Source: Fidelibacterota bacterium (lineage in GTDB: Bacteria > Fidelibacterota > UBA8477 > JABMPR01). From it: a stretch of DNA of 23,442 bases. Position 1 is the first letter of the stretch. Each line of letters begins with the position of its first letter. Under the pieces are notes generated by a model. The model saw only the letters and a list, made by a program, of their open reading frames with translations. It was not told the origin of the DNA and ran no database searches. A program made the translations under genes and the position numbers. Below are positions 2,279 through 20,940 of the stretch, piece after piece. The stretch is from assembly GCA_013202495.1 (NCBI GenBank), contig JABMQQ010000185.1:1-23442 (forward strand), in the 5' to 3' direction.

Positions 2279-2294
2279 TGGCATTGTTGTTGTC
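2279..2294 (+). promoter_or_regulatory. Weak sigma-54-type -24/-12 candidate (TGGCAT-N5-TTGT)
   Basis: GG and TTG fall at the canonical 10-bp spacing. Two bases deviate from the other TGGCAC / TTGCA-like elements in the window. The site is about 185 nt upstream of the 2479 start. Confidence 0.3.
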
Positions 2295-3990: not shown

Positions 3991-4034
3991 TGGAGAATAT
4001 TCTACAAACCCGATGAATAGTCTACACAATATCC
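3991..4034 (+). promoter_or_regulatory. Two tandem copies of the recurring motif, with centres about 21 bp apart: TGGAGAATATTCTACA (3991-4006) and GAATAGTCTACACAATATCC (4015-4034)
   Basis: Palindromic core GAATATTC flanked by TCTACA. The same family appears at 6281, 8885, 8908 and 16131. Confidence 0.5.
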
Positions 4035-4159: not shown

Positions 4160-4175
4160 TGGCATGCTAGTTGAA
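4160..4175 (+). promoter_or_regulatory. Sigma-54-type candidate TGGCATG-N4-TTGAA
   Basis: It has the same TGGCAyG-N4-TTGnA architecture as the elements at 9036 and 16220. It lies about 130-170 bp downstream of the tandem motif and about 95 nt upstream of the histidine-kinase start. Confidence 0.35.
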
Positions 4176-6280: not shown

Positions 6281-6296
6281 TGTGGAATATTCTACA
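6281..6296 (+). promoter_or_regulatory. Single copy of the palindromic motif, TGTGGAATATTCTACA
   Basis: It is a near-perfect 16-bp palindrome 53 bp upstream of the 6349 start. It overlaps a possible -35 (TTCTAC) that sits 17 bp upstream of a TATTAT -10-like hexamer at 6313-6318. Confidence 0.45.
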
Positions 6297-6348
6297 GTTT
6301 AGTCTTATTATCATGAGCTTACTCAATCAATAAAATGGAAGCTCAAAC

Positions 6349-7515
6349 ATGTCTGTGATCGAAAAGTTGAACAAAAACCGCATTTTAATGTGGCGGGTCG
6401 TAATTGTTATCTCTACCATATTAATATCCTATTTTCACTTCACAACACCCCCTGATGAAGGTCATATACACCTCATTCTAATGCAGTTTTACCTCATCCC
6501 AATTCTTATCGGTGCTGTCCAGTTTGGAGTCATAGGAGGATTTGGAACTGCCATAGTGATAAGTGTGATTGTTGCTCCACACATTATTTTTCAATGGATC
6601 GGGGGTGCTCAACACCATTTGTTGGGATATCTGCAAATTGCCATCTACAACGCAATCGGCTATTTAACTGGGTTGAAATCCCAGCTAGAAATGAAGGCTA
6701 GAAATCATCTTGCTGCCACGGCTGATCAGTTAACCCAAACACTTACTACCCTAGAAAAACAATCTGAAGAGATGGCGGAGCTTGAAGAACAGGTGAGTCA
6801 TTCAGAGCGCTTATCCGTGATCGGCGAACTCATGGCAAGTTTGGCGCATGAGCTAAGAAACCCTTTAGCATCTATTCGTGGGAGCGTGGATATCTTGAAG
6901 AAGGAGCTAAGCGAACACGAGAAGCGAGGTGAGTTCTTCCAAATACTGGTAAATGAGACAGAAAGAATGAGTGGGGTTGTTGAAAACTATTTGGCACTCG
7001 CTAGGCGTAGCAAGGGTGTCGAAGTTGAGTATGATATAATTGAGATCATAAGAAACACTTCCCTTTTATTAGCCAGTAGGGGACGCCGTGATCAAATAAT
7101 CATTAAGTGTAATCTTCCAGAGGAACCACTCGTGATAATGGGTGATCCAAACGACCTAAGACAAATATTGGTCAATCTGATTCTTAATGGGATTCAAGCA
7201 ATGGATAACCCGGGTGCAGTTTCTATTACCGCTCAGATAGAAGATAACGCTGAAAAATTATGTATCATCAACATAGAAGATGAGGGTACAGGTATTCTCG
7301 ATGAGCAATTCGAAAAACTGTTTGAACCATTTTTCTCAACCAAAGAGCAAGGGACAGGATTGGGTTTGAGCATTGTTAAGCGAATAGTTGAGAATAGAGA
7401 ATGGCAAATCCGAGTGGAGAATCGGAAACCCACGGGTAGTAATTTTACACTATCAATCCCTCTTGAAATAAATGAACCAGACCAGGCAACACAAGGATCA
7501 CAAACAAATGTATAG
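6349..7515 (+). CDS. Sensor histidine kinase with a membrane-embedded sensor of 4-5 transmembrane helices. It resembles NtrB, ZraS and AtoS partner kinases of sigma-54 regulators.
   Basis: The N-terminal roughly 110 aa are all hydrophobic helices carrying His residues (HIHLIL, APHIIF, AQHHLL). A coiled-coil follows, then the H-box MASLAHELRNPLASIRGS and HATPase_c motifs (LNGIQAM, GTGLGLSIVKRIVE). Its stop overlaps the response-regulator start by 8 bp. Confidence 0.9.
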   Translation: MSVIEKLNKNRILMWRVVIVISTILISYFHFTTPPDEGHIHLILMQFYLIPILIGAVQFGVIGGFGTAIVISVIVAPHIIFQWIGGAQHHLLGYLQIAIYNAIGYLTGLKSQLEMKARNHLAATADQLTQTLTTLEKQSEEMAELEEQVSHSERLSVIGELMASLAHELRNPLASIRGSVDILKKELSEHEKRGEFFQILVNETERMSGVVENYLALARRSKGVEVEYDIIEIIRNTSLLLASRGRRDQIIIKCNLPEEPLVIMGDPNDLRQILVNLILNGIQAMDNPGAVSITAQIEDNAEKLCIINIEDEGTGILDEQFEKLFEPFFSTKEQGTGLGLSIVKRIVENREWQIRVENRKPTGSNFTLSIPLEINEPDQATQGSQTNV

Positions 7516-8860
7516 TGTTTTACTTATTGATGATGATATGAGCCTAAGTCGGGTGTTGGGCTACCAACTGGAGCAAAGCGGATTTGATGTAGTTGTCGTG
7601 AATAGTGGCAAAGATGGTCTTGAACAGTTTAAAGAAAAGAGTTTCGATATTGTCGTCACAGATATTCAAATGCCAGATATGTCTGGAATTGAAGTCCTGG
7701 GCGAGATACGTAAAATTGATGTAAATATTGTCATTATTCTCATAACTGCCTATGGGAGTGTTGACAACGCCATCGAGGCTTGCCGTCTGGGGGCAGATGA
7801 TTATCTAACCAAGCCATTTGGCCAAGAGCAGCTGCTATTTGTAATTGAAAAGGCAATGCGTCTCCGGGAGCTTCAGTCGGACAACACAAAGCTCAGACGT
7901 GAATTAAAGGGCAAACATAATTTCAGCAACCTTGTCACGAATAATTCCGAGATGGAAAGTGTATTGGAAATGGCTGGGCAAATAGCAGATAGTGAAACAA
8001 CGACACTAATTCTTGGCGAGAGCGGTACGGGCAAAGAGCTCATAGCTAAAGCTGTTCATTACAATAGTTCTCGTGCCAAGAAACCACTTATCACGGTAAA
8101 TTGTCCTTCAATTCCCGACAATCTACTTGAGAGTGAGCTATTTGGACACGTTCGTGGATCCTTCACCGGAGCTATAAGGGACCGTAAGGGCAAGTTTGAA
8201 ATGGCTAATGGTGGTACAATTTTCCTCGATGAGATTGGAGACTTGCGTGAAACGGTGCAAGCTAAGTTATTGAGAGTTTTACAGGAGCAAGAAATTGAAC
8301 GTCTGGGTGATTCCAAAACTACAAAAGTAAATGTACGAATAATTGCAGCCACTAATAAAGACTTATGGCAACTCTCCCAAACGGGAAAATTTAGAGAGGA
8401 TCTATATTACAGGTTGAGTGTAATCCCTATCACAATTCCTCCACTGCGCGATAGATCCGGGGATGTACCGATACTAATAAATCATTTCCTAAAGAAATAC
8501 TCTAGAAGCAAAAACTTCAAAATAGATAGTGAAGTCTTTGATATTCTCGATCATTATTCATGGCCAGGTAACATCCGGGAACTTGAAAACCTTGTGCAAA
8601 GACTTGTTACCCTGACAAAAGGGGAGCTGATAACATCAAGTGATCTCCCAGGCCACATACGGTCATCAGAAGCTAATCTCAATCCTCTGTCGCTTAAAAT
8701 CCCTGCTGATGGTCTCTCCCTTCACGAAGTGGAAGAAAAACTCATCCGAGAAACACTTCAAAAAGCTAATGGCAACCAATCCAAGGCTGCAAGATTGCTA
8801 AAAATCCCCAGACATGTCCTATTGTATCGTTTGAAGAAATTAGGAATCGTCCACCAATAA
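7508..8860 (+). CDS. Sigma-54-dependent response regulator (NtrC family; REC + AAA+ sigma-54 activator + Fis-type HTH)
   Basis: REC domain: MYSVLLIDDD...DIVVTDIQMPDMSG...KPF. Walker A is GESGTGKE and Walker B is IFLDEIGDL. The sigma-54 contact loop reads VRGSFTGA, a GSFTGA variant of GAFTGA. The C-terminal HTH is QSKAARLLKIPRHVLLYRLKKLGI. The start at 7508 was chosen because it places the ATG overlapping the upstream kinase's TAG (ATGTATAG). Confidence 0.95.
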   Translation: MYSVLLIDDDMSLSRVLGYQLEQSGFDVVVVNSGKDGLEQFKEKSFDIVVTDIQMPDMSGIEVLGEIRKIDVNIVIILITAYGSVDNAIEACRLGADDYLTKPFGQEQLLFVIEKAMRLRELQSDNTKLRRELKGKHNFSNLVTNNSEMESVLEMAGQIADSETTTLILGESGTGKELIAKAVHYNSSRAKKPLITVNCPSIPDNLLESELFGHVRGSFTGAIRDRKGKFEMANGGTIFLDEIGDLRETVQAKLLRVLQEQEIERLGDSKTTKVNVRIIAATNKDLWQLSQTGKFREDLYYRLSVIPITIPPLRDRSGDVPILINHFLKKYSRSKNFKIDSEVFDILDHYSWPGNIRELENLVQRLVTLTKGELITSSDLPGHIRSSEANLNPLSLKIPADGLSLHEVEEKLIRETLQKANGNQSKAARLLKIPRHVLLYRLKKLGIVHQ

Positions 8861-8884: not shown

Positions 8885-8930
8885 TGTAGAATATTCTGCA
8901 CAATACCTGTAGAATATTCTACAAAATATC
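8885..8930 (+). promoter_or_regulatory. Two tandem 23-bp copies of the motif: CTGTAGAATATTCTGCACAATAC and CTGTAGAATATTCTACAAAATATC. The core TGTAGAATATTCTACA is a perfect 16-bp palindrome.
   Basis: Direct repeat with a 23-bp period, read directly. It lies about 105-150 bp upstream of the sigma-54 element at 9036. Confidence 0.6.
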
Positions 8931-9035
8931 ATCTATATCCAATTCTGGGCACCTATTAAGCTAGCTCAATAATTAACTTTAATATACTGTAAATACTAGA
9001 TATAAGCATTTCCAATCCTCGCGATATTTTGACTT

Positions 9036-9051
9036 GGCACGCAAGTTGGAA
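9036..9051 (+). promoter_or_regulatory. Sigma-54 promoter, TGGCACG-caag-TTGGA
   Basis: It matches the TGGCACG-N4-TTGCW consensus except for one base (TTGG in place of TTGC). The identical architecture recurs at 16220. The predicted TSS is near 9061-9063. Confidence 0.6.
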
Positions 9052-9061
9052 TAAGAGAGGC

Positions 9062-9436
9062 ATGATGAGCCTTAGAAAAGTACATACTAAAATGCAACAG
9101 AAAGGGCGGAATTATGTTTCCGGCCTGCTCATCCTGATAGGACTCTCAGGTGCAATACTCTTTTTCCCGATAGACATGGGGGGAACGGAAACATGCATCT
9201 TCGAAAGCGTAAATCCCAATGTTGATATATTCCATCATGCCGCAACTGGTCAGGGATTGTCTCTCATCGTACAAGAGGAGTCATCTTTCGAGCACTATCT
9301 GAGTTATTACTCAACTTGGTGGTGGGGCAGTTTGGTCCTACTAGCCATGGGGGTTTTCTTTTTAACAACTCGGTCCATAGTGCTGGATCGAATAGTTCCT
9401 TTTAATAATTATCTAAAAAGTGGGAAAGACATTTAA
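9062..9436 (+). CDS. Small hypothetical membrane protein with two predicted transmembrane helices. It is the first gene of the efflux operon.
   Basis: Its stop codon TAA at 9434-9436 directly abuts the ATG at 9437. An AGAGAGG RBS sits before the ATG at 9062. The annotated 9029 start would place the sigma-54 promoter inside the ORF, so I moved the start downstream (9062, or 9092). Confidence 0.45.
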   Translation: MMSLRKVHTKMQQKGRNYVSGLLILIGLSGAILFFPIDMGGTETCIFESVNPNVDIFHHAATGQGLSLIVQEESSFEHYLSYYSTWWWGSLVLLAMGVFFLTTRSIVLDRIVPFNNYLKSGKDI

Positions 9437-10708
9437 ATGCAAATCCAAAAATTGTTACTGCTAGTCACTCTAACGAGCCTAAGCTTTGGTCAAGTGACTG
9501 CAATTAAGCAAATAGACCTGCAGGATCTTATTAAGGAAGGTCTTTCTAACAATCCATTTAGACAGGCATACTATGAAGATATTGGCATTGCCGAATCTAA
9601 GGTTTCACAATCAGGAGCCCTGCCTGATCCGATGTTATCGCTCAACTTAATGAATTTACCTTTTGAGAATTTTGGGTTTGATCAAGAGCCTATGTCTGGG
9701 AAGCAAGTTGCATTTAAGCAGGGAATACCCTTTCCGGGAAAACTAGGCCTTAAGGAACAGATTGCAAAAGTAGGGGTTAAGATTTCGAACGACCAATATG
9801 CCGAAGTAAGCAACGGACTCGTAAGAGATATTTCTAAGACCTATTATGATCTATTCTTTGTGGACGAAGCGATAGCCACAATCGACAAAAACCGTCAATT
9901 AGTTTCTGAACTGCTCAAAGTAGCCGAACAAAAATATGCAGTTGGTAAAGGTTTACAGCAAGATGTACTAAAAGCCCAAGTAGAACTGTCACTTATGACA
10001 GAGAGACTCATTTCACTGAATCAAAGCAGAGACCGTATTGAAGCTAACCTAAACGCACTCTTAAATCGACCAATTGACCAATCTTTTGGATCCATACAGA
10101 AACCCCAGATCAAACAGTATTCACTGTCATTTGCTGAGCTTAAAGCAATTGGCGATGAGAATCGACCCCTGCTTAAGCAATGGCAGAATCGTATTGAGAG
10201 AAGTGGGAGAAAAATCGAATTAGCTAAGAAGAATCTTTTACCGGATTTTGCAATAAGCGCGGCGTATACCCAACGTGATATTCTTCAGAGCGGAATGGGT
10301 GGCGCTGACTTTCTTTCTACTGGGATTAGCCTCAATCTCCCGATTTATGCGAAAAGCAAACAAAAGCAAAATATCAACGAGAAACGGATAGAGCAGAAAA
10401 GTTTAGAGGAAAGACGTGAAGGTGTCCAGCAGAAAGTATACCGAGATATAAGTAACGGCTTAACAGAGCTAATCGAAAATACAGAATTGCTGGAGTTGTA
10501 TCGGACGGGAATTATCCCCCAGGCAGCACAGTCATTAGAATCAACGCTTACCGGATACCAAACTGACAAAGTGGATTTCCTGACACTTATCAGTAGTCAA
10601 ATGACACTGTTTAATCTCGAACTTGAATACGCAAAACTAATTAGCAAACATAACAAAAATATAGTTGATCTAGAGTTTTTCATTGGCACGTCTTTGCCTC
10701 TGAATTGA
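9437..10708 (+). CDS. Outer-membrane efflux protein (TolC / OEP family; CusC- or CzcC-like outer-membrane factor)
   Basis: Signal peptide MQIQKLLLLVTLTSLSFGQVTA with no lipobox Cys. It has the two-repeat OEP architecture with coiled-coil segments (LNQSRDRIEANLNALLNRPID, LELYRTGIIPQAAQSLESTLTGYQTDKVDFLTLISSQ). Confidence 0.85.
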   Translation: MQIQKLLLLVTLTSLSFGQVTAIKQIDLQDLIKEGLSNNPFRQAYYEDIGIAESKVSQSGALPDPMLSLNLMNLPFENFGFDQEPMSGKQVAFKQGIPFPGKLGLKEQIAKVGVKISNDQYAEVSNGLVRDISKTYYDLFFVDEAIATIDKNRQLVSELLKVAEQKYAVGKGLQQDVLKAQVELSLMTERLISLNQSRDRIEANLNALLNRPIDQSFGSIQKPQIKQYSLSFAELKAIGDENRPLLKQWQNRIERSGRKIELAKKNLLPDFAISAAYTQRDILQSGMGGADFLSTGISLNLPIYAKSKQKQNINEKRIEQKSLEERREGVQQKVYRDISNGLTELIENTELLELYRTGIIPQAAQSLESTLTGYQTDKVDFLTLISSQMTLFNLELEYAKLISKHNKNIVDLEFFIGTSLPLN

Positions 10709-10735
10709 TCGGCATAACCACGAGGGGAGCACATT

Positions 10736-12241
10736 GTGTTTCGGAGAATAAAAATGAGAACAGTAGTAAAAATATTGATAGTTGTACTAAGCATAGGGTT
10801 GGCGGCATTTGTTGTCAGTTGTGGATCAGCTAATTCAGACAGTAAGCATGAGCATACGAAAAATGCAGAGGGTCTATACACCTGTGGAATGCATCCCGAG
10901 GTTATTCTGGAAGGACCAGGCCAATGTCCTATCTGTGGTATGAACCTGACTCCCTTGAAACAGAATTCTGTCTCAACAGCCTCTTCCCAAAAACCAGATA
11001 GTGAGCGTAAAATACTGTACTGGCAAGCTCCCATGAATCCTGAAGAAATATATGATGAGCCCGGCAAGTCGAACATGGGAATGGATTTGGTCCCTGTATA
11101 TGATGATCAAACCAGCTCAGGTAGTCAAGTTTCAATCGATCCAAGTACAGTTCAAAACATGGGAGTTCGTACTGCTACTGTTCAGAGGCGGGACTTTAGC
11201 AGAAATATCCGAGCATTGGGCAAGATCGATTACAATGAAGAAAATATTTATGAGGTTTCCTCCAAGATATCTGGTTGGATCGAAAAACTATATGTGGACT
11301 ATACCGGGAAACCAGTCCGCAAAGGTCAGGCTTTATTGGAGTTATATTCTCCTGATTTGGTCACTACACAGCAAGAGTATCTGCTGGCTTTGAAAAACAG
11401 GGAGTTGATCAGCGAATCTAGCTTTGCGAGCATTCGCGAAGGTGCTGAATCCCTACTCTCATCCACCCGCCAAAGATTAGCCTATTGGGATATTCCTGAA
11501 AAAGAAATCCTACGCCTTGAGGATGGCGGCGTCGTCAGTAAGACCATTACTTTTGAATCACCTGCAGATGGAATTGTGATTCATAAGAACGCTGTTGAGG
11601 GCAAGCATATCAAAGAAGGTAGCTCTCTTTATCGAATAGCTGATTTGTCAACAATCTGGGTATTTGCAAGTCTCTATGACAATGAGGTACCGTGGGTGGA
11701 GGTTGGTCAGACTGCAGAAATGGAACTCTCATATGCTCCGGGAAAGATTCTGAAAGGAAAAGTGGCTTACATTTATCCTTATTTGAATGAAAAATCGCGT
11801 GATGTGAAGGTTCGCTTAGAATTTCCAAATCCAGATATGATGTTAAAACCAGGTATGTATGCGAATGTGAGCATTAAGACTCAATCCATCAAGGATGCAA
11901 TGGTTATTCCTTCTGAATCGGTGATCCGGTCAGGCGAAAGGATACTAACATTTATTGCAAAGGGTGAAGGCCGTTTTGAACCTCGTCCAATCAAAGTTGG
12001 GCAAGAGGGAGATAATGGAGAGGTTCTGGTTCTCGCTGGATTGACTGAGGGCGAGGAGATAGTTACCTCAGCTCAGTTCTTACTTGATAGTGAAAGTCGT
12101 CTACAAGAGGCTATCCAGAAGATGCTAAGTGAGAAATCGGCAGCAAGAACTGCAATGGAGCCAGAAGAGGAAGATATGGAGACAACCTCCATGGAATCCA
12201 TGGAGCAAGACTCTGATTCTGATATGGATCATTCTCACTGA
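10736..12241 (+). CDS. cusB: RND efflux periplasmic adaptor (CusB-like membrane-fusion protein) with an N-terminal CxxC heavy-metal-binding domain (HMBD) and an acidic, Met-rich C-terminal tail
   Basis: GTG start with a GAGGGGAG RBS 6 nt upstream. Lipobox VVSCGS. The HMBD (about 10877-10960) reads YTCGMHPEVILEGPGQCPICGMNLTPL. The HlyD/CusB-like core includes YSPDLV...EYLLA and GMYANVSIKT. The C-terminus is EPEEEDMETTSMESMEQDSDSDMDHSH. Confidence 0.85.
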   Translation: MFRRIKMRTVVKILIVVLSIGLAAFVVSCGSANSDSKHEHTKNAEGLYTCGMHPEVILEGPGQCPICGMNLTPLKQNSVSTASSQKPDSERKILYWQAPMNPEEIYDEPGKSNMGMDLVPVYDDQTSSGSQVSIDPSTVQNMGVRTATVQRRDFSRNIRALGKIDYNEENIYEVSSKISGWIEKLYVDYTGKPVRKGQALLELYSPDLVTTQQEYLLALKNRELISESSFASIREGAESLLSSTRQRLAYWDIPEKEILRLEDGGVVSKTITFESPADGIVIHKNAVEGKHIKEGSSLYRIADLSTIWVFASLYDNEVPWVEVGQTAEMELSYAPGKILKGKVAYIYPYLNEKSRDVKVRLEFPNPDMMLKPGMYANVSIKTQSIKDAMVIPSESVIRSGERILTFIAKGEGRFEPRPIKVGQEGDNGEVLVLAGLTEGEEIVTSAQFLLDSESRLQEAIQKMLSEKSAARTAMEPEEEDMETTSMESMEQDSDSDMDHSH

Positions 12242-12314
12242 TTTTGATCAGCGTGAAATCGAACGACAATACGTATTAAAACCGCCATTGGCGAAAAAAA
12301 TATAGAGAATTATT

Positions 12315-15300
12315 ATGCTAGAAAAGATTATTGAAGCTTCAGTGAATAACCGATTCCTGGTCATCTTATTTACGGCTCTGATTGCTTTAGGGGGAATCTA
12401 CGCGGTTCTCAATACACCGATTGATGCTATCCCTGACCTCAGCGATGTTCAGGTTATCATTTTTACGGAATTTCCAGGACAAGCACCTCAGGTTGTCGAG
12501 GATCAGGTTACCTATCCACTTACCACAGCCATGTTGGCAGTTCCATATGCAAAAGTAGTCCGGGGATATTCATTCTTTGGTCTCTCATTCGTTTATATCA
12601 TTTTTGAGGATGACACTGATCTTTATTGGGCCCGAAGCAGGGTTCTTGAGTATCTGAATTACGTATCAAGTCGTCTCCCTGAAGGAGTTACACCGACCTT
12701 AGGTCCTGATGCGACTGGAGTAGGTTGGGTATACGAATATGTGCTGGACGGTGGAGATGAATATGATCTTCAACAGCTCAGATCTATTCAAGATTGGTAT
12801 CTCCGTTACCAACTAACTGGTGTGCCCGGTGTGGCAGAAGTGGCCAGTATTGGTGGCTATGTCAAACAGTATCAGGTAGAGATAGATCCCAATAAACTAC
12901 TCGCATATAACATTCCTATTCAAAAAGTGAAAATGGCTATCAAGCGCAGCAATAATGATGTTGGTGGAAAGCTCATTGAGATGGGCGAGACGGAATTCAT
13001 GGTGCGTGGACTGGGATATATCAAAAACAAAGAAGATATTGAGAAAATTGCGCTGGGCGTAGACTCCGAAGGAACACCCATTCTCATTAAACAGATTGCC
13101 AATGTCAATATAGGCCCTGAGTTACGTCGAGGAATAACTGATTGGAATGGTGAAGGAGAGGCCGTCGGAGGTGTAATTGTTATGCGCTCTGGCGAAAATG
13201 CTCTCAAAACTATTGAGCTTGTGAAGGAAAAACTTGAAGAATTGAAGAAAGGCCTTCCGGAGGGTGTGACTATCAAGTCTGCCTACGATCGTTCAGGCCT
13301 AATCAATCGAGCTATCGACAATTTGAGCTTAAAGTTACTTGAAGAGTTATTGGTAGTGGCGATCGTGTGTATTGTTTTCCTGCTCCATTTTCGGAGTGCA
13401 TTTGTAGCACTCTTCACATTACCAATGGGCATACTGGTATCATTTTTCATTATGTATTTCCAGGGTATTAATGCCAACATTATGTCCCTGGGAGGAATCG
13501 CAATAGCCATTGGAGCTATGGTTGACGCTGCTATTGTGATGATTGAGAATGCTCATAAGCACCTCGAAAGAGACAAAGGTAAAAAAGACCACTGGCAAAT
13601 CATTATCGATTCTTCCAAAGAAGTAGGACCGGCTTTATTCTACTCATTGTTGATTATCACAGTATCCTTTCTACCAGTATTCACACTAGAAGCACAGGAA
13701 GGACGCTTGTTCAAACCCCTCGCATTTACAAAAACGTATGCCATGGGTGCCTCAGCCTTCCTGGCGATTACCATTGTTCCCATTCTTATGGGTTATTTCG
13801 TTCGTGGTAAGATTCTCCCTGAAAACAAGAATCCAATAAGTCGCTTTCTTATGAAGATATATAGACCCATTATTCATGCAGTGTTGCGTTTTAAATGGGC
13901 AACCATTGTTATTGCCATAGTAATCATGGCAATAACCATAATTCCCCTTGGAAAAATTGGATCAGAATTCATGCCTCCACTCAACGAGGGTGATCTTCTA
14001 TACATGCCAACAACTGATCCTGGTATCAGTATTACTAAGGCAAAGGAACTTTTACAACAGACCGATAGGATCATTAAGAGTTTCCCTGAAGTTCACCACG
14101 TTTTTGGTAAGATTGGTCGTGCTGAATCAGCAACAGATCCTGCTCCTTTATCTATGATAGAAACAACAATAATGTTGAATCCTACAGATACCTGGCGTGA
14201 TGGAATGACCATTGAAAAGCTCATCCTTGAGCTGGACGCAGCTATCCAGTTTCCTGGATTAACCAATGCCTGGACCATGCCCATAAAAACGAGAATCGAT
14301 ATGCTTGCTACCGGTATCAAAACCCCAGTAGGCATCAAGCTAATGGGACCAGATCTGGAGGTTCTTTCAGACTTGGGACAAGAAATAGCCGGTGTGATCA
14401 AGGATGTTGAGGGGACCTTAAGTGTATTCCCCGACAAAACGATAGGTGGAAACTTCCTGGACTTTGACATCAAGCGTGACGAAATCGCCCGTTATGGTCT
14501 AACCGTCGGTGATGTACAAGATGTAATCATGTCCGCTATAGGTGGAATGAACGTGTCCTATACAGTTGAGGGGTTGGAGCGTTATCCAATTAATGTCAGA
14601 TATAGTCGTGAATTACGTGATAATATTTCAGCATTGAAAAGAGTTTTGGTTCCAACACCTTCGGGAGCTCAGATTCCAATGGAATATTTAGCAGAAATCA
14701 AGATCGTCAAGGGTCCCCCCGTCATAAAAAGTGAAAACTCACGCCAGACAGCCTGGCTATATGTTGACTTGAGAGGAATTGATGTTGGTACTTATGTAGA
14801 AAACGCAAAAAAGGTTGTGGAAGCCAATATATCATTTCCAGAGGGTTATAGTCTCGTTTGGTCTGGTCAATATGAATATATGGAACGTGCGGCAAAGAAA
14901 TTAAAGATCGTTATCCCTATAACTCTGCTAATCATCTTTTTGTTGCTATATTTCAATTTCAAGAACTTTACTGAAAGTGTGATTGTGATGTCCTCCCTAC
15001 CATTTGCTTTGGTAGGTGGTATCTGGTTCATGTATTTTCTGGATTACAACTTTAGTGTGGCTGTAGGTGTGGGATTTATCGCACTGGCTGGTCTAGCTGC
15101 AGAAACAGGTGTCGTCATGCTGGTCTACCTTGATAATGTGTTTGCTGAAAAAGTGAACAGTGGAAAAATGAGAAGCCTGACAGATCTTTATGATACTGTG
15201 ATCGTTGGAGCTGTTGAACGCGTTAGACCCAAGCTGATGACGGTAACAACCACCATGTTTGGACTTGTACCGATCCTTTGGGGAACTGAGGCTGGATCCC

Positions 15301-15569
15301 AAACTATGAAGCGTATTGCCGCGCCCATGGTTGGCGGAATGGTCTCCTCAACTATACTAACTCTCATAGTTATTCCTGCAATTTATTATCTCTGGAAATC
15401 GCGAGAAGTGAAAAGCATTATCAGCAAACTACAATTAGATGGTTCAACTGAGCCTGTTGAACTCATTTCCATTGATGCACACTCTGAAGAGACACCAATT
15501 GAAATCGAGGCAAAGCCAAATGAGAATCTCGATGATAATAATTCTACCAAGCTGGGACCAAACGAATAA
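12315..15569 (+). CDS. cusA: Heavy-metal-efflux RND pump, CusA-like (Cu(I)/Ag(I) type)
   Basis: 1084 aa with 12 transmembrane helices and two large periplasmic loops. The TM4 region AIAIGAMVDAAIVMIENAHK...GPALFYSLLIITVSFLPVFTLEAQEGRLFKPLAFTKTYAM is near-identical to the CusA signature as I remember it, and it lacks the CzcA-type acidic TM4. A roughly 60-aa acidic C-terminal extension is present. Confidence 0.95.
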   Translation: MLEKIIEASVNNRFLVILFTALIALGGIYAVLNTPIDAIPDLSDVQVIIFTEFPGQAPQVVEDQVTYPLTTAMLAVPYAKVVRGYSFFGLSFVYIIFEDDTDLYWARSRVLEYLNYVSSRLPEGVTPTLGPDATGVGWVYEYVLDGGDEYDLQQLRSIQDWYLRYQLTGVPGVAEVASIGGYVKQYQVEIDPNKLLAYNIPIQKVKMAIKRSNNDVGGKLIEMGETEFMVRGLGYIKNKEDIEKIALGVDSEGTPILIKQIANVNIGPELRRGITDWNGEGEAVGGVIVMRSGENALKTIELVKEKLEELKKGLPEGVTIKSAYDRSGLINRAIDNLSLKLLEELLVVAIVCIVFLLHFRSAFVALFTLPMGILVSFFIMYFQGINANIMSLGGIAIAIGAMVDAAIVMIENAHKHLERDKGKKDHWQIIIDSSKEVGPALFYSLLIITVSFLPVFTLEAQEGRLFKPLAFTKTYAMGASAFLAITIVPILMGYFVRGKILPENKNPISRFLMKIYRPIIHAVLRFKWATIVIAIVIMAITIIPLGKIGSEFMPPLNEGDLLYMPTTDPGISITKAKELLQQTDRIIKSFPEVHHVFGKIGRAESATDPAPLSMIETTIMLNPTDTWRDGMTIEKLILELDAAIQFPGLTNAWTMPIKTRIDMLATGIKTPVGIKLMGPDLEVLSDLGQEIAGVIKDVEGTLSVFPDKTIGGNFLDFDIKRDEIARYGLTVGDVQDVIMSAIGGMNVSYTVEGLERYPINVRYSRELRDNISALKRVLVPTPSGAQIPMEYLAEIKIVKGPPVIKSENSRQTAWLYVDLRGIDVGTYVENAKKVVEANISFPEGYSLVWSGQYEYMERAAKKLKIVIPITLLIIFLLLYFNFKNFTESVIVMSSLPFALVGGIWFMYFLDYNFSVAVGVGFIALAGLAAETGVVMLVYLDNVFAEKVNSGKMRSLTDLYDTVIVGAVERVRPKLMTVTTTMFGLVPILWGTEAGSQTMKRIAAPMVGGMVSSTILTLIVIPAIYYLWKSREVKSIISKLQLDGSTEPVELISIDAHSEETPIEIEAKPNENLDDNNSTKLGPNE

Positions 15570-15599
15570 TCCTGCACCGACAGGCGATAGGAGAATCAG

Positions 15600-15941
15600 A
15601 TGAAAGAGGTTAAAGCATTTATCCGGGGTGACAAGGCAGACGAAGTTATTGCAGCCTTGGAAGAAGTAGGAGTTATCAACTTGACTGTAATCAATGTGAT
15701 GGGTATAGGCCGGAGTCTTGCGCCTTCGAAAGGTGCAAAATACTCTGTTGATCTGACTCAGAAATATTCAACTATAGCCAAAATAGAGATTGTATGCAGA
15801 GCATCTGATACTGCGAAGATAGTGGATGTATTGCGGCAGTCTGCTTACACAGGCATGCAAGGCGATGGGATGATCTATGTTGTCCCAGTTGAAACAGCTG
15901 TCAAAATTAGAACTGGAGCATATGGGGGGGATGCGTTGTAA
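15600..15941 (+). CDS. PII-like (GlnB-fold) signal-transduction protein. It resembles the 'PII new group' linked to heavy-metal RND loci.
   Basis: It aligns by eye to GlnB: MKEVKAFIRGDK..VIAAL.EVGV..LTV..V.G.GR...KIEIV...D.AKIVDVL..SAYTG..GDGMIYV.PVE.AVKIRTG. The T-loop is shorter and lacks the Tyr51 context. The gene sits immediately after cusA, and a terminator follows it. Confidence 0.8.
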   Translation: MKEVKAFIRGDKADEVIAALEEVGVINLTVINVMGIGRSLAPSKGAKYSVDLTQKYSTIAKIEIVCRASDTAKIVDVLRQSAYTGMQGDGMIYVVPVETAVKIRTGAYGGDAL

Positions 15942-15981
15942 CCCCCCGACAACAATTCTTCCCCGCTTCAGCTTCCATATA

Positions 15982-16036
15982 AGATGGGTGGGCTTTGATC
16001 CTCAATAGGATTAGGGCTCATCCATCTTTTCGTTTT
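15982..16036 (+). terminator. Strong intrinsic terminator with a 21-bp stem: AGAUGGGUGGGCUUUGAUCCU-CAAU-AGGAUUAGGGCUCAUCCAUCU, followed by UUUCGUUUU
   Basis: All 21 positions pair when six G-U wobbles are allowed. It ends the efflux operon 40 bp after the PII-like stop. Confidence 0.7.
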
Positions 16037-16130
16037 AATAGCTTACAATCCACAAAGCACCGCGCCAGATACCACAAAAACAAGACGGATATTACTTGTA
16101 CATTATTCAACACCGACGTCTAGATAATGA

Positions 16131-16148
16131 AGAATAGTCTACAATATC
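16131..16148 (+). promoter_or_regulatory. Copy of the motif, AGAATAGTCTACAATATC
   Basis: Same family as 4015-4034. It lies about 72-90 bp upstream of the sigma-54 element at 16220. Confidence 0.5.
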
Positions 16149-16219: not shown

Positions 16220-16235
16220 TGGCACGTGATTTGGA
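16220..16235 (+). promoter_or_regulatory. Sigma-54 promoter, TGGCACG-tgat-TTGGA
   Basis: Its architecture is identical to the element at 9036 (TGGCACG-N4-TTGGA). The predicted TSS is near 16246. Confidence 0.6.
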
Positions 16236-16433
16236 TTAAGTAGTCATGTGAAATTAAAATTTATACAGAACCAGCCCTTCAACATGACACAGCCGAGAGG
16301 GGTAAAAATTGAGGGCAGATTGCAACGTGGAGCTCAGGCGAGTTCAATGTCTCAGGTATACGGACACAGCACAGCCGATCTGCCCTATGAGAACAAGGCT
16401 TATAACGAGCCAATAAATAAAAGGAGTAGTAAG

Positions 16434-17006
16434 ATGACGAGAATGCAGTTTCTCACCAAAACGATGATGATGTCTTTGATGGTCTTTATCGCCGTTTCAA
16501 ATGTCAACGCCCAACATATGGGGGATAATCATCAAGATCAGGATCAAATGAGCGGGGATCAGACCACCCAGCATATGCATGAAAACATGCAGAATATGCA
16601 GCAAATGCAGCAGTCAAATATGATGACCATGGACGGTCAGAGCATGATGATGTCTATGGAAGAAATGATGGAGCATATGAGTCAATTGATGAACCATAGC
16701 GAAGCCATGCTTTCCAGCCTTGAAGACAGCGGCGATCACGGGTTAATGTCCATGTTCAGGGGTGATGATTCCGAGACTCATATGATGGAAATGACTGAAG
16801 ACATGACTGAGATGATGACAGGGATGAATGGATTAATGGAAAATATGCAGTCCATGATGGGCGATCAGGACATGATGAGCGAGGAAGGCATGCAGATGCA
16901 AATGGATAATATGCAATCGACTCTCAACGAAATGGTGGCATCAATGGATCAGATGATGGACAATATGCATAATATTCAAAAGCTTACTCCAAAAGTTAAG
17001 AAATAA
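16434..17006 (+). CDS. Secreted, extremely Met-rich acidic low-complexity protein, a putative periplasmic Cu(I)/Ag(I)-binding 'methionine sponge'
   Basis: AAGGAG RBS 7 nt upstream of the ATG at 16434. The Sec signal peptide is MTRMQFLTKTMMMSLMVFIAVSNVNA|QH. The mature part is packed with MxM, MxxM and HxxM motifs (MQNMQQMQQSNMMTMDGQSMMMSMEEMMEHM...MMEMTEDMTEMMTGMNGLMENMQSMM). The track's GTG start at 16248 would be leaderless relative to the sigma-54 TSS and adds 62 residues before the signal peptide, so it is unlikely. Confidence 0.7.
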   Translation: MTRMQFLTKTMMMSLMVFIAVSNVNAQHMGDNHQDQDQMSGDQTTQHMHENMQNMQQMQQSNMMTMDGQSMMMSMEEMMEHMSQLMNHSEAMLSSLEDSGDHGLMSMFRGDDSETHMMEMTEDMTEMMTGMNGLMENMQSMMGDQDMMSEEGMQMQMDNMQSTLNEMVASMDQMMDNMHNIQKLTPKVKK

Positions 17007-17025
17007 AGAACCTCTAGAACAAATC

Positions 17026-17832
17026 ATGCGCACCAAGAATCAAATTGTCAAAAAGCGTCTCCAAACGACGTGGCTGTTGCTAGCCTGGGTTGCAGGTTCT
17101 GCCCAGGCCGGCCAGTCATGGTCTCTTGCTACTTCAATGTCCTACAATCAAGGCACTTATGTGTATGAAAATACCATTGAAAATTATTACTTAAATTTAG
17201 GAGTAAGGTACAAACAGCCTCTGTGGTCAATCGCAGTAACTCTCCCAATCTTAGCTCAACAGGATAATCTTGAATTGGCTAGCTTTCCGGAGTCAGGCGT
17301 TGCGGATAGTAACGGCGTTCTGACTAACACCCACTGGGGTAACGTAAAAATGGGTGTAGGTGATTTATACATCTTTGGTCAACGCACAGTATGGCAGAAT
17401 TTTAAATCCAAAAGCTCGCTGTCTGCAACCTTTCAATTCAAAGTGCCCCTTGGATTTTCAAGTCAAACTTTTAGCTCACAGAAAAAGGATTACGGTGCAG
17501 GAATTCTATTTAAACAGTATCGGGGAGATTATTCATTTTTCACCGATTTGGGGTATCTGGTTTTAGGTAATCCTGAATGGGGAATCTACAAAAACCCAAT
17601 TAGCTATGGTGCCGGGATTGGCAGGACTTTCCTTCGTAAAACACTTTCCATGTCCATGTACTACCGTGCCTATACAGAAATAATAGACGGGATCTCTCCT
17701 CCTCAGCAGATTTCATTTGGCCTTTATGGCCGACTAAACCGCCAGTCTAACATATCAATAAATTGGACTCAGGGATTGAGTGAGAGCAGCCCGGATAGAG
17801 GCATATCTATGGGGCTAAGTAGGAAATTATAG
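17026..17832 (+). CDS. Putative outer-membrane beta-barrel protein
   Basis: Signal peptide ...LLLAWVAGSAQA. The mature part shows alternating hydrophobic/polar beta-strand periodicity with many Tyr, Gly and Trp residues. The family was not recognised. Confidence 0.55.
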   Translation: MRTKNQIVKKRLQTTWLLLAWVAGSAQAGQSWSLATSMSYNQGTYVYENTIENYYLNLGVRYKQPLWSIAVTLPILAQQDNLELASFPESGVADSNGVLTNTHWGNVKMGVGDLYIFGQRTVWQNFKSKSSLSATFQFKVPLGFSSQTFSSQKKDYGAGILFKQYRGDYSFFTDLGYLVLGNPEWGIYKNPISYGAGIGRTFLRKTLSMSMYYRAYTEIIDGISPPQQISFGLYGRLNRQSNISINWTQGLSESSPDRGISMGLSRKL

Positions 17833-17897
17833 AGTGCTGGACTTGATAGTAAGTTGAGACTCCAGAATAGATAAACACCAAGCAGAAAGGCTACAAC

Positions 17898-18290
17898 ATG
17901 AAATCAATGATCGCAATTATAACACTTAGCACAGGAGTCCTCCTTGGTTGCCAGGATAAGGCCACAGAGCAGGTTAAACAAAGTTCAAGTATGGAACGGA
18001 TTCAAAAATCCGATGTGAGTCATGAGGATCACGATCATGCTAGTATGGAGAAGGCTGTTAGCCCTGAATACTACACATGTCCCATGGAGAGCCACAAGCA
18101 TATTAACAGTCAAGAGGCTGGAAGTTGTCCCGAATGTGGTATGACGTTAGTACCAGTAGTCGAAACGACCGCTGAAGATGCTGAATTTTATGGGTGTCCA
18201 ATGCCTGAACATAGTCATGTCAGAGCAGAAGAAGCAGGGTCATGCCCAGAGTGTGGAATGAACTTAAAACCGATGAAACTTGGCAGCTAA
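17898..18290 (+). CDS. Lipoprotein with two tandem CxxC heavy-metal-binding domains (HMBD), a putative periplasmic Cu(I)/Ag(I) chaperone
   Basis: Lipobox VLLGCQD. The His-rich linker is SHEDHDHASMEK. HMBD1 is YYTCPMESHKHINSQEAGSCPECGMTLVPV and HMBD2 is FYGCPMPEHSHVRAEEAGSCPECGMNLKPM. Both share the motif found in the CusB-like adaptor and the CopA N-terminus. Confidence 0.75.
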   Translation: MKSMIAIITLSTGVLLGCQDKATEQVKQSSSMERIQKSDVSHEDHDHASMEKAVSPEYYTCPMESHKHINSQEAGSCPECGMTLVPVVETTAEDAEFYGCPMPEHSHVRAEEAGSCPECGMNLKPMKLGS

Positions 18291-18345
18291 ACCGAATTAT
18301 CAAAATGACATTATGCGCTGATAGAATAAATGTGAAGGTCCTGAA

Positions 18346-18762
18346 ATGAATAAAAGAACGCTTATGGTAGCAGCAATAATTCTGGGTGCATGCTTGCTAT
18401 TTTTTCAACCCATTTTTGCCAATGCGCTACCCGAAGATTGGGTAGCTCCCGCCAGTGCGGATTCTCTCCAAAGTCCGATAAAATCAAATTCTGATTCTTG
18501 GATGCCGGGGGAAGCCATATACAAAACAGCCTGTGGCGTATGTCATGGTGTAAGTGGGTTCGGTGACGGCATTGCCGCTGTAGCTCTAAATCCGAGACCT
18601 GCTGATTTAACATCCAAAGTGGTGCAAGATCAAAGTGATGGAGCCCTTTTTTGGAAGCTCACAACAGGTAAAACCCCCATGGCCAGTTATAAGGATGTGT
18701 ACACCGATCAGCAACGTTGGGAACTGGTTGAGTACATCCGCAACCTAGAGAAGAAGGATTAG
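18346..18762 (+). CDS. Monoheme class-I c-type cytochrome (periplasmic)
   Basis: Signal peptide followed by a single CGVCHG (CXXCH). A downstream ...DGALFWKLTTGKTPMASY... stretch supplies the Met sixth-ligand context typical of c552/c6-like cytochromes. It ends ...RWELVEYIRNL. Confidence 0.8.
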   Translation: MNKRTLMVAAIILGACLLFFQPIFANALPEDWVAPASADSLQSPIKSNSDSWMPGEAIYKTACGVCHGVSGFGDGIAAVALNPRPADLTSKVVQDQSDGALFWKLTTGKTPMASYKDVYTDQQRWELVEYIRNLEKKD

Positions 18763-18764
18763 AT

Positions 18765-19943
18765 ATGAAATATATTACAACACTATTGATTACGATTTGT
18801 GTATCTGTGTATGGTCAGGACTATTCAGATTTGCTCAAAAAAATTGAAAGCTCGAAACCTGGTGATAGCCAATTTCTGCTTCGGGGGTATGCTCACTCAG
18901 GATATGAAAAAAGGGGTGAAGAATCCAGTTTTGTGGGTGGAAGTTTTAATCCAATATTCCTATGGCGTCAATCTGATAAACTACTTTTTGAGGCGGAACT
19001 GGAATTAGAGCTCGAGCATGGAGAAACCGCTCTTGCTTTAGAATATGCAAACATGGCTTATGAGCTTCGGGACAACTTAACTGTCCGCGTTGGCATGTTT
19101 TTGCTTCCCTTTGGGACCTTCAGTGAACGTCTCCATCCTCGTTGGATAAATCGTCTACCTTCTAGCCCTCTAGGATTTGGCCATGATCCTATTGGTCCTA
19201 TGCGTGACATGGGAATCGAACTTAGAGGAAATACAAAACTCGGAAGCAGAAGCCTTAGCTATTCTCTTTATTCAACCAACGGACCCTCTTTAAATGACGG
19301 GGAAGATCACGATTTGAGTGAAGACGAGGCAGGGATGCTCAATTATCTAAACTTTGAGGACAATAATTCAAATAAAGCGATCGGTGGAAGGCTGGGAATA
19401 TTTCCACTTGCATCACCGGCTCTGGAGTTAGGCTTTTCGGGTCAGATCGCAGAAGTAGGTAATCACGAAACTGAATATGAAAACACTGCTGCCAATCTAT
19501 ATGCACTCGATATGTCATATGTTAATAATATCATTTTCCTAAAGGGTGTTGTAGATCTAAAGGGACAGTTGAATCAAATCAATGTTGATGATGAAAGTTA
19601 TTTCTCGGACGAGGATTCCTCCTCCTACTCATTTTTAAACCAAAGTCAAGCTTCCTATCTGCAGGCATCTTTTAGACCCGCATACGTGAGGAATTCATTT
19701 GTGAAGAATCTAGAAATAGTAGGAAGATACTCCCAAATTGAAACTCCTGAGGGAGCGCTTTGGGAATCAAATCAGTCACAATATGTAGTTGGTCTCAATT
19801 ATTGGTTGGATTGGCGAACTGTTCTCAAAATTGCCTACCAGGTAAATGAGAGCTCCGCAGCAGGTGGCCATGTTGAAGAAGACGAGCACGGGGATGAAGG
19901 TGGGGATAACGCAATACTCATTCACTGGGCATTTGGATTCTAA
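18765..19943 (+). CDS. Porin-like outer-membrane beta-barrel protein
   Basis: Signal peptide MKYITTLLITICVSVYGQ. The C-terminus is aromatic (ILIHWAFGF, ending in Phe), which is typical of outer-membrane proteins. An acidic His-containing loop (HVEEDEHGDEGGD) sits near the C-terminus. The gene starts 3 bp after the cytochrome stop. Confidence 0.65.
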   Translation: MKYITTLLITICVSVYGQDYSDLLKKIESSKPGDSQFLLRGYAHSGYEKRGEESSFVGGSFNPIFLWRQSDKLLFEAELELELEHGETALALEYANMAYELRDNLTVRVGMFLLPFGTFSERLHPRWINRLPSSPLGFGHDPIGPMRDMGIELRGNTKLGSRSLSYSLYSTNGPSLNDGEDHDLSEDEAGMLNYLNFEDNNSNKAIGGRLGIFPLASPALELGFSGQIAEVGNHETEYENTAANLYALDMSYVNNIIFLKGVVDLKGQLNQINVDDESYFSDEDSSSYSFLNQSQASYLQASFRPAYVRNSFVKNLEIVGRYSQIETPEGALWESNQSQYVVGLNYWLDWRTVLKIAYQVNESSAAGGHVEEDEHGDEGGDNAILIHWAFGF

Positions 19944-19972
19944 GTATACTTCACAATTAGAAGGAAATTAAC

Positions 19973-20245
19973 ATGATAAAATCAATAAAAACGACATTAG
20001 GTCTAGCCACAATAATAATATTGTCAACAATGTTCATAACCGCATGTAGTTCACAGAATCCTCCTCTTGAGAAATCTGGTGCACAACTATGGGGTGAAAA
20101 TTGTGTTCGCTGTCACAACGCACCATCTCCATCAGCTTTTAGTGATAACCAATGGGAAACCGTGGCCATGCATATGAAAATCAGGGCAAACCTGAATTCA
20201 TCCGAAACTGCAGAAATTGTTGAATTCCTGCAAATGGCAAATTGA
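19973..20245 (+). CDS. Small monoheme c-type cytochrome lipoprotein
   Basis: Lipobox FITACSS and a single CVRCHN (CXXCH) motif. At 90 aa it resembles small soluble cytochrome c family members. Confidence 0.65.
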   Translation: MIKSIKTTLGLATIIILSTMFITACSSQNPPLEKSGAQLWGENCVRCHNAPSPSAFSDNQWETVAMHMKIRANLNSSETAEIVEFLQMAN

Positions 20246-20269
20246 CAAGAATAGAAAGAGAGAAATATA

Positions 20270-20659
20270 GTGAGTGTTTACAGTATGACCTCTGTTTCAG
20301 AGCGTAGCTTTGACGAAACAGTTGATATGGTAACAGAGGAATTGAAAATAGCAGGATTTGGTGTGCTCACGGACATAGATGTCAAAAGCACGCTGAACGA
20401 AAAGTTGGGTGTAGATATACCACGATATCGGATTCTTGGAGCCTGCAATCCACAGTATGCTTATGTGGCTTTGAAAACTGAAGATCATGCTGGTCTCTTT
20501 CTGCCGTGCAATGTAGTTGTACACGAGCTGGGAAAGAATGAGGTTGAGGTTACGGTCCTCGATCCCGTTGCTGCAATGCAAGCGGTATCAAATCCAAGGC
20601 TAAAGGCTGTAGCTTGGCAAGTTCGAGAAAAGCTTGAAGCTGTAATAGAGCGTATCTGA
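20270..20659 (+). CDS. DUF302-domain protein
   Basis: Characteristic DUF302 layout: SFDETVDMVTEELKIAGFGVLTDIDV...RILGACNPQYAYVAL...LPCNVVVHE. Position 20270 is a GTG start. The alternative ATG is at 20285. Confidence 0.8.
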   Translation: MSVYSMTSVSERSFDETVDMVTEELKIAGFGVLTDIDVKSTLNEKLGVDIPRYRILGACNPQYAYVALKTEDHAGLFLPCNVVVHELGKNEVEVTVLDPVAAMQAVSNPRLKAVAWQVREKLEAVIERI

Positions 20660-20688
20660 GTTTCGATGTCGCTCGAAAGGGTGTCACT

Positions 20689-20892: not shown

Positions 20893-20940
20893 GATGATAC
20901 TTAACCAACATTATGAAAATAATAGAAGGCATATAAAAAA

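Follow-up and report, generated by a model that had tools for sequence, protein, structure and literature searches.

Introduction

The canonical sigma-54 promoter is described by the consensus TGGCACG-N4-TTGCW (Barrios et al. 1999, as quoted in PMC2725144 and PMC4551910). Few bases of sigma-54 promoters vary as little as the C at -12, which is placed where sigma-54 keeps the DNA closed before the activator acts. A C at -12 is reported for 96% of bacterial sigma-54 promoters, and the base is reported to restrain basal transcription (PMC4551910). In mutants of the -12 region of glnAp2 (Wang and Gralla, as described in PMC4551910), altered surroundings of the -12 GC weaken the fork-junction lock; for a single -12 C-to-T mutation in Cereibacter sphaeroides the authors suggest lower expression (PMC11999139), an example of the weight that the base normally carries. 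Sigma-54 promoters of Flavobacterium are reported to have 'typical -24/-12 elements' (PMC9723704). Two promoters of Escherichia coli, pspA (TTGGCACGCAAATTGTA) and pspG (TTGGCATGATTCTTGTA), are true sigma-54 promoters that keep the TTG and lack the -12 C; both drive the envelope-stress response.

Two examples of metal-responsive two-component systems that act through sigma-54 serve for comparison. ZraS/ZraR of E. coli, with its target zraP, is Zn/Pb-responsive, and consists of a kinase and a REC-AAA+-HTH_8 activator that control envelope metal-stress genes from sigma-54 promoters. CorS/CorR of Myxococcus xanthus, with its target curA, is a copper-responsive kinase and sigma-54-dependent response regulator; the cluster holds several putative sigma-54 promoters and encodes a CopA ATPase and a cytochrome c (PF13442) that resembles subunit III of cbb3 oxidases (PMC3707914). 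Our search found no literature on sigma-54 in Marinimicrobia, and a full-text literature search for sigma-54 together with 'leaderless' found no paper describing the combination.

Here we analyze by computation a stretch of 23,442 nucleotides (the window: contig JABMQQ010000185.1 of assembly GCA_013202495.1) from the metagenome-assembled genome of an uncultured marine bacterium, referred to throughout as Candidatus Marinimicrobia (SAR406). Two elements in the window, P3 and P4, are very probably sigma-54 (RpoN) -24/-12 promoter cores which, together with two weaker relatives (P1 and P2), would make up the regulon of an adjacent kinase and activator.

Results

Two predicted promoter cores with G at -12

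The sequence TGGCACGNNNNTTGGA (TGGCACG-N4-TTGGA) has two exact matches in the window, both on the plus strand, and no match in 100 dinucleotide-preserving shuffles, which bears out the view of a first-pass annotation of this DNA that two copies are unlikely by chance. The predicted core ahead of operon 1, P3 (TGGCACGCAAGTTGGA), occupies positions 9035–9050 of the plus strand, with the -24 G at 9037 and the -12 G at 9049: the element reported by the annotation is present, but its coordinates (9036–9051) were one base too high. The predicted core ahead of operon 2, P4 (TGGCACGTGATTTGGA), is found exactly where it had been placed, at 16220–16235 of the plus strand (-24 G at 16222, -12 G at 16234). 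Comparison with TGGCACG-N4-TTGCW agrees with the further statement that each core departs from the consensus at one position only: the sole mismatch is the C of the -12 GC. The C at -12 by which a sigma-54 promoter is recognized is thus missing from both cores, and G stands in its place.

A looser motif, TGGCAY-N5-TTG, occurs six times in the window against an expectation of 0.60, and six matches were reached by no shuffle. Four of these are P1–P4. The weaker relatives listed by the annotation at 4160 and 2279 were both found, with the spacing unchanged: P2 (TGGCATGCTAGTTGAA; TGGCATG-CTAG-TTGAA; 4160–4175, plus strand) is a weaker predicted sigma-54 promoter that precedes the gene for a PAS histidine kinase, and P1 (TGGCATTGTTGTTGTC; TGGCATT-GTTG-TTGTC; 2279–2294, plus strand), likewise weaker, precedes the gene for a Big_2/EB_dh haem-domain protein. 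A fifth match, at 1845 on the minus strand (TGGCATGCATATTGAG; 1830–1845), is an uncertain candidate promoter in an intergenic, gene-poor gap. The sixth, at 22560, was discarded as a promoter candidate: it falls within the gene for a CopA-like ATPase, where it spells the heavy-metal-binding (HMBD) motif CPKCGM, and is a coding artefact. Scans for sigma-70-type hexamers around P3 and P4 gave matches at chance level only. An Rfam scan of the window, including the 190-nt region 3' of P4, returned nothing at gathering thresholds.

A sigma-54 activator next to two metal operons

Directly upstream of P3 lie two genes on the plus strand. One encodes a membrane histidine kinase (6349–7515; HisKA and HATPase_c), presumed to be the metal sensor, and the other a sigma-54 activator: a response regulator of 450 aa with the arrangement REC / AAA+ Sigma54_activat / HTH_8 (7508–8860). 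The start assigned to the activator is Met-13 of an open reading frame that opens at 7472, and a protein record (P0001) that is 100% identical also has 450 aa. The domains found are REC, Sigma54_activat (PF00158, E=2e-70), AAA_lid_14 and HTH_8, and the loop reads GSFTGA in the window and GSFTGA or GAFTGA in orthologs: the protein is an NtrC-type enhancer-binding protein. No further sigma-54 activator was found in 10 kb added to the left of the window (on the right the contig ends), and no RpoN box in any of the loci fetched, among them ~33 kb of the host genome.

Operon 1 (9062–15941, plus strand) opens with an ATG at 9062, 13 nt past the -12 base, and encodes a small membrane protein, an outer-membrane channel, a CusB-like adaptor with an HMBD, an RND pump of the CusA/CzcA family and a P-II-like protein; the pump passes the CusA/CzcA NCBIfam cut-off and the best match of the adaptor is CusB. 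Between operon 1 and P4 is a hairpin resembling an intrinsic terminator (15981–16040, plus strand), with a stem of 20 pairs and a T run. Operon 2 (16246–23442, plus strand) continues beyond the window and has an ATG (16246) and a GTG (16248) at the predicted +1. Its first genes encode a Met-rich secreted protein, a 268-aa protein of unknown nature (17026–17832) and a protein with two HMBDs; these are followed by genes for cytochromes c, a porin-like protein, DUF302 and DUF2231 proteins and a CopA-like P-type ATPase whose best match is CopA. A PF13442 protein is encoded within the operon at 18346–18762.

The motifs do stand, as had been claimed, in front of two metal operons – RND efflux genes behind P3, and genes for HMBD proteins and the CopA-like ATPase behind P4 – and the locus as a whole joins an adjacent kinase and REC-AAA+-HTH_8 regulator to metal-homeostasis genes that follow predicted sigma-54 promoters. 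Judged from gene annotation, the metal signal is most likely Cu(I)/Ag(I).

Paired palindromes upstream of the predicted promoters

A 16-bp palindrome with the consensus TGTAGAATATTCTACA has eight matches in the window at three or fewer mismatches, against 0.22 expected, and all copies lie upstream either of P1–P4 or of the kinase gene. The putative activator sites of P3 are a pair spanning 8885–8923 (TGTAGAATATTCTGCA at 8885–8900, and the consensus itself at 8908–8923), with centers 144.5 and 121.5 bp upstream of the -24 G. Those of P4 span 16097–16143 (TGTACATTATTCAACA at 16097–16112, TGAAGAATAGTCTACA at 16128–16143), the centers being 117.5 and 86.5 bp upstream of the -24 G. The putative sites of P2 (3991–4026) comprise TGGAGAATATTCTACA at 3991–4006 and a weaker partner, CGATGAATAGTCTACA, at 4011–4026, and those of P1 (2098–2134) comprise TGTAGATTATTGTCCA at 2098–2113 and TGGTGAATACTCTACA at 2119–2134; the P1 palindromes may also serve the candidate at 1845 on the minus strand. 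The pairs of P3 and P4 fall in the range of roughly 80–150 bp upstream of a sigma-54 promoter in which enhancers are sought, and the layout of the palindromes as a whole is the classical arrangement of enhancer sites for a sigma-54 activator.

A lone palindrome (TGTGGAATATTCTACA, 6281–6296) is situated 53 bp upstream of the kinase gene, and one is present upstream of this gene in all ten orthologous loci examined. No -24/-12 motif was found between the palindrome at 6281 and the kinase gene; what follows the palindrome in every ortholog is a conserved -10-like sequence (CTTATTATC), with an ATG a few bases further on in most. The palindrome at 6281 is probably an autoregulatory site, and the arrangement suggests that the kinase gene has a leaderless sigma-A promoter under autoregulation. 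The same layout of CTTATTATC and ATG suggests that leaderless starts may be common in these organisms.

Geometry is fixed in diverged DNA

Orthologous loci, with activators 61–90% identical to that of the window, were available from Marinimicrobia-like contigs (L002, L082, L162, L163, L165, L167, L168, L169 and L170) and Calditrichia-like contigs (L003 and L173). Among cultured organisms, Caldithrix abyssi is the nearest that carries the orthologous system. A Fodinibius-like ortholog (P0036) stands outside the promoter counts, since the promoter of its efflux operon lies beyond the end of the contig. Gene order is conserved across the Marinimicrobia-like and Calditrichia-like contigs: kinase, activator, in some cases a small ORF, outer-membrane channel, CusB-like adaptor (with HMBD), RND pump and P-II-like protein.

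The P3 core (TGGCAYR-N4-TTG) and the two palindromes that precede it are present in 11 of 11 orthologs, and in all 11 the center of the proximal palindrome lies 118.5–121.5 bp from the -24 G. The P4 core is conserved in eight orthologous loci; the corresponding distance, in the six Marinimicrobia orthologs, is 85.5–87.5 bp. Within each pair the palindrome centers are 22–23 bp apart at P3 and 30–31 bp apart at P4. Core, palindromes and spacing have been kept while the intervening and flanking DNA has diverged, which is what an enhancer-looping mechanism predicts; some tolerance is evident from the ortholog in L002, whose spacer is shorter by 1 nt. We regard this fixed geometry as the strongest computational support for function. 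Taken with the adjacent activator, the paired palindromes and start codons that track the predicted +1 (below), it supports the sigma-54 reading proposed in the first-pass annotation.

The base at -12

In 17 Marinimicrobia promoters (a set that excludes the ortholog in L002) T-G-G, A and T-T-G are invariant, and all but one of the 17 have C at -23. The TTG, with its G at -13 exactly 10 nt past the GG, keeps the canonical spacing in every case; the base at -11 and the spacer vary. At -12 this matrix holds 13 G, 3 A, 1 T and no C. The wider set of 21 palindrome-linked promoters from at least 11 genomes – which are phylogenetically related, so that the counts are not independent events – holds 14 G, 5 A, 2 T and no C. 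The annotation's description of the -12 element as non-canonical is correct and extends to the orthologs, where G is conserved and C never occurs.

Elsewhere the picture differs. A tally by eye of 54 validated promoters of E. coli and Desulfomicrobium (table of validated promoters, PMC12316311 S2) gave approximately 47 C, 4 T, 3 A and no G, the T cases including pspA and pspG. Matches to TGGCAY-N5-TTGN in 2.28 Mb of other activator loci, mostly from Ignavibacteria and other phyla, have C in 33 cases, A in 9, T in 6 and G in 4, the counts for A, T and G being near background. With no C in 21 promoters, against 96% C in published promoters and mostly TTGC elsewhere, the G at -12 is conserved and is not noise. 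Judged from these counts and from the typical elements of Flavobacterium, the non-C -12 base is real and conserved, and is not general across the Fibrobacterota-Chlorobiota-Bacteroidota (FCB) superphylum, in which Marinimicrobia are placed together with these other lineages.

Two simple accounts of the substitution were rejected. The -12 G does not co-vary with an A-to-S change in the GAFTGA loop of the activator: two orthologs (L162 and L170) combine GAFTGA with TTGG. Nor has the GC been shifted one base downstream as a rule, TTGGCA being found only in L168 and L170.

Start codons at the predicted transcription start

If the fourth base of TTGG is taken as -12, the predicted +1 falls at ~9061 for P3 and at ~16246 for P4, in agreement with the first-pass annotation (9061–9063 and 16246–16248). 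All ten Marinimicrobia orthologs of P3 have an ATG 13–14 nt past the -12 base, and each such ATG opens an ORF: a small membrane protein (124–139 aa), an outer-membrane channel extended at its N terminus or a short remnant ORF. The start of the small membrane protein is also the choice of independent gene callers. At the P4 orthologs an ATG or GTG lies 12–16 nt past the -12 base; in four genomes the ORF from this start extends the Met-rich protein in frame by 62 codons, and the extension is conserved, while in two others the start opens a different, Cys-containing ORF of 60 aa. At P1 an ATG 13 nt past the -12 base opens an ORF of 15 codons. The mapped transcription start of E. coli pspG is likewise 13 nt past the base equivalent to -12. 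Since start codons in Marinimicrobia stand just 12–16 nt past the -12 base, leaderless mRNAs, or leaders of a few nucleotides at most, are predicted. The Calditrichia orthologs have Shine-Dalgarno leaders instead.

Discussion

A model for activation

The arrangement described above lends itself to the following model. A metal signal, most likely Cu(I)/Ag(I), would activate the kinase, and the phosphorylated activator would bind the two palindromes as dimers, on one face of the DNA given that the palindrome centers are two or three helical turns apart. The activator would then oligomerize into an AAA+ ring and, by looping over ~120 bp (P3) or ~86 bp (P4), remodel and open the closed complex of the sigma-54 holoenzyme. 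Transcription would start ~13 nt past the -12 base, which in Marinimicrobia is at the start codon or 1–3 nt from it. Sigma-54 is presumably still held in place by the invariant TTG with its G at -13. Absence of the -12 C probably leaves the repressive fork-junction lock looser, and a change in basal activity or in ease of activation is to be expected; the promoters may open more easily, or their sigma-54 may read the base differently.

Why G at -12?

The missing GC at -12, the hallmark of the class, is what might lead one to read the motifs as something other than sigma-54 promoters: a chance likeness, or the binding site of another protein. We consider this extremely improbable. The motifs are enriched over shuffles and have a sigma-54 activator next to them, their distances to palindromes and start codons are fixed across genomes, and sigma-70-type matches there do not exceed chance. 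Given, then, that P1–P4 are very probably sigma-54 promoters, the -12 base could be a leftover: weakly read, with G retained from an ancestor and devoid of function. That seven of the 21 promoters have A or T agrees with relaxed constraint, as does the relatedness of the loci, by which shared ancestry inflates the count of G. Yet the base at -11 and the N4 spacer have diverged freely while 13 of 17 Marinimicrobia promoters retain G at -12, the G spans two paralogous classes of promoter (P3 and P4), and, with C at ~20% of background, its absence from all 21 is itself mildly unexpected; we regard a functionless leftover as distinctly unlikely.

Two further possibilities invoke function. It is quite possible, if tentative, that the host sigma-54 prefers TTGC elsewhere and that the metal regulon has been selected to do without the -12 C, a weaker fork-junction lock allowing metal-defence promoters to open more easily, faster or with slight leakiness. 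Non-consensus bases at -12 correlate with activator-bypass transcription and the C is reported to restrain basal transcription (PMC4551910); pspA and pspG, stress promoters of E. coli, have TTGT and likewise do without the C; every clear non-C promoter found here carries the same palindromes; and relatives in the superphylum use TTGC, as judged from the 2.28 Mb of other loci (C33, A9, T6, G4) and from the typical elements of Flavobacterium (PMC9723704). Against such tuning of a single regulon, no canonical TTGC promoter, and hence no contrast within the organism, was found in any of the Marinimicrobia or Calditrichia DNA fetched, and simple loss of C does not predict the strong preference of Marinimicrobia for G over A and T. 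The other possibility is a shift of the whole lineage: sigma-54 of Marinimicrobia, and perhaps of Calditrichia, would take TTGG or TTGR as the normal -12 element because the part of the protein that contacts -12 (region I / ELH-HTH) has changed. C is absent from 21 of 21 promoters in at least 11 genomes with activators 61–90% identical, only G, A and T interchanging, and two further sites – the minus-strand candidate at 1845 and an intragenic TGGCACCGGTCTTGGAA at 16944 of L171, from the same genome – lack C as well. These two are candidates only, however, and all well-supported examples belong to one orthologous regulon; a lineage-wide shift strikes us as rather unlikely. The fuller claim, that sigma-54 of Marinimicrobia (perhaps also of Calditrichia) has TTGG/TTGR as standard -12 element and routinely gives leaderless mRNAs, we hold to be unlikely. 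Of these accounts of the -12 base, tuning of the metal regulon is by a small margin the most probable.

Implications

A regulon that has a base other than C, mostly G, at -12, kept across many genomes of an abundant uncultured phylum of the ocean, is a natural experiment on the lock. It suggests either that the promoters of a metal-stress response have been tuned or that sigma-54 reads -12 in an altered way. Were the rule to prove lineage-wide, the shift would be at the very position that sets the activator-dependent 'lock', and the finding would gain in interest. There are also practical consequences. Scanners that demand GC at -12 will miss such regulons in Marinimicrobia and Calditrichia, for which the combination of palindrome, promoter and predicted leaderless start offers a usable search model; the activator and promoter would also form a defined, portable pair for use in a heterologous host.

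Relation to known systems

The promoters resemble the canonical sigma-54 promoter in having TGGCAY at -24 and TTG, with G at -13, 10 nt past the GG, and in having putative activator sites ~85–145 bp upstream and the gene of an AAA+ activator adjacent. They differ at -12, where G (or A/T) is found here and C in none of 21. The nearest precedents at the level of the promoter are E. coli pspA and pspG (TTGT), from which it is clear that the -12 C is not obligatory; the -24 half and spacer of pspA are almost identical to those of P3. The psp promoters nevertheless have T rather than G at -12, are controlled by PspF and not by a two-component system, and give mRNAs with leaders. Mutants of glnAp2 and activator-bypass promoters provide a parallel of another kind: weakening of the lock, as seen there, is the proposed likely consequence of a natural G at -12. 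Those cases are laboratory mutants or rare E. coli promoters, whereas here a base other than C is the conserved natural state of a whole predicted regulon.

At the level of the system, ZraS/ZraR offers the same combination of kinase, REC-AAA+-HTH_8 activator, envelope metal-stress genes and sigma-54 promoters, and of the named families ZraR and ZraS score among the best for the activator and kinase of the window. They are not orthologous: the activator scores 400 bits with the ZraR model against a cut-off of 760, and the kinase 176 with the ZraS model against 479. The zraP and zraS promoters, unlike those of the window, have canonical TGCA/TGCT at -12, and it is RND and P-type efflux genes that the system of the window would control. 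CorS/CorR of M. xanthus (PMC3707914) is similar in pairing a kinase with a sigma-54-dependent response regulator – the copper response being established for CorS/CorR, while the metal role here comes from annotation – and in genes for a CopA ATPase and a PF13442 protein that lie in a cluster with several putative sigma-54 promoters. M. xanthus belongs to another phylum, its CorS carries a sensor domain in the periplasm, the CorSR cluster is without an RND pump, and neither a conserved -12 G nor a leaderless design is reported there. The type of system is thus a known one, of which ZraSR and CorSR are examples; what is new, on the sequences compared here, is the conserved G at -12 and the predicted leaderless starts.

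Start codons downstream of the sigma-54 promoters

In all Marinimicrobia orthologs of the metal island (loci L162-L170, L082 and L002) each sigma-54 promoter has a start codon 12-16 nt past its -12 base, which in the window's motifs at 9035 and 16220 is the last G of TTGG. For P3, the promoter of the CusCBA-like efflux operon, an ATG follows 13-14 nt past the -12 base in 10 of 10 such orthologs; the corresponding start codons in the window fall at 9062-9064, 16246-16250 and 2306-2308. A distance this short implies that mRNAs from these Marinimicrobia sigma-54 promoters would be leaderless or near-leaderless. Calditrichia orthologs, unlike those from Marinimicrobia, carry Shine-Dalgarno leaders.

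P3 of L002 (6050-6066; TGGCATG-TTA-TTGGAG) has a spacer one base shorter, yet retains both the downstream ATG and the distance to the palindromes (16-bp presumed binding sites of the NtrC-type activator). Either this is a tolerated spacing variant, or TGGA is read in the canonical register.

A single palindrome ahead of the kinase gene

A lone activator palindrome is situated approximately 50 bp 5' of the histidine kinase gene and is kept in all loci (window 6281-6348, plus L002, L082, L162, L163, L165 and L167-L170). It is followed by a conserved, -10-like CTTATTATC and, in most loci, by an ATG a few bases further on; between palindrome and gene (window 6281-6348 and the equivalent sites in orthologs) the -24/-12 motif is absent. 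Judged by these elements, the kinase gene looks like one with an autoregulated, leaderless sigma-A-type promoter.

The boundary between the two operons

The conserved last gene of the CusCBA-like operon encodes a P-II (GlnB-like) protein in most fetched orthologous loci (window 15600-15941; operon end in L002, L163, L165, L167-L170 and L173). Directly 3' of it, an intrinsic-terminator-like hairpin with a 20-bp stem and T tail (15981-16040) divides the two sigma-54 transcription units.

Beyond P4, the promoter of the second operon, 62 codons separate the predicted start from the ATG of the Met-rich protein (16434), which is itself preceded by a Shine-Dalgarno sequence. This stretch is in frame and conserved at the protein level (GRLQ.G..SSMS.V.GH..DLP) in four genomes (window 16248-16433; L163 19883; L165 12176; L167 12347), an unrelated 60-aa Cys-containing ORF occupies the equivalent place in two genomes (L082 12742; L169 11699), and Rfam gave no match between the P4 start and the Met-rich protein's ATG. 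The region would either extend the Met-rich protein at its N-terminus or encode a leader peptide of its own.

Additional sigma-54-like matches

The minus-strand match TGGCATGCATATTGAG (1830-1845) falls within 1.2 kb where no gene is confidently called (gap 1254-2478), and 15 nt past its -12 base an ATG opens an ORF (MKAENNQQ...MKQNTTKLLVLFLVG...). Palindromes at 2098 and 2119 may be common to this candidate and the divergent promoter at 2279. Some 6 kb left of the window in the same genome, TGGCACCGGTCTTGGAA (L171 16928-16944, minus strand) matches the TTGG variant perfectly; it is within a Phenol_MetA_deg-like gene adjoining an HMA-domain gene, has no palindrome nearby, and could be a chance match or an internal promoter. 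TGGCATGTCCCTTGAA (22560-22575) resembles a sigma-54 promoter and was rejected, being inside the CopA-like gene, where it codes for the HMBD motif: loci rich in such motifs will yield false sigma-54 matches.

Possible mobility of the metal island

In one ortholog (L163/L164 2236-5022) a phage-type integrase and excisionase-like HTH_17 genes stand ahead of the metal island, and a further copy of the window's genome has a transposase gene after a truncated CopA (L172 12531-12967). The island may be mobile.
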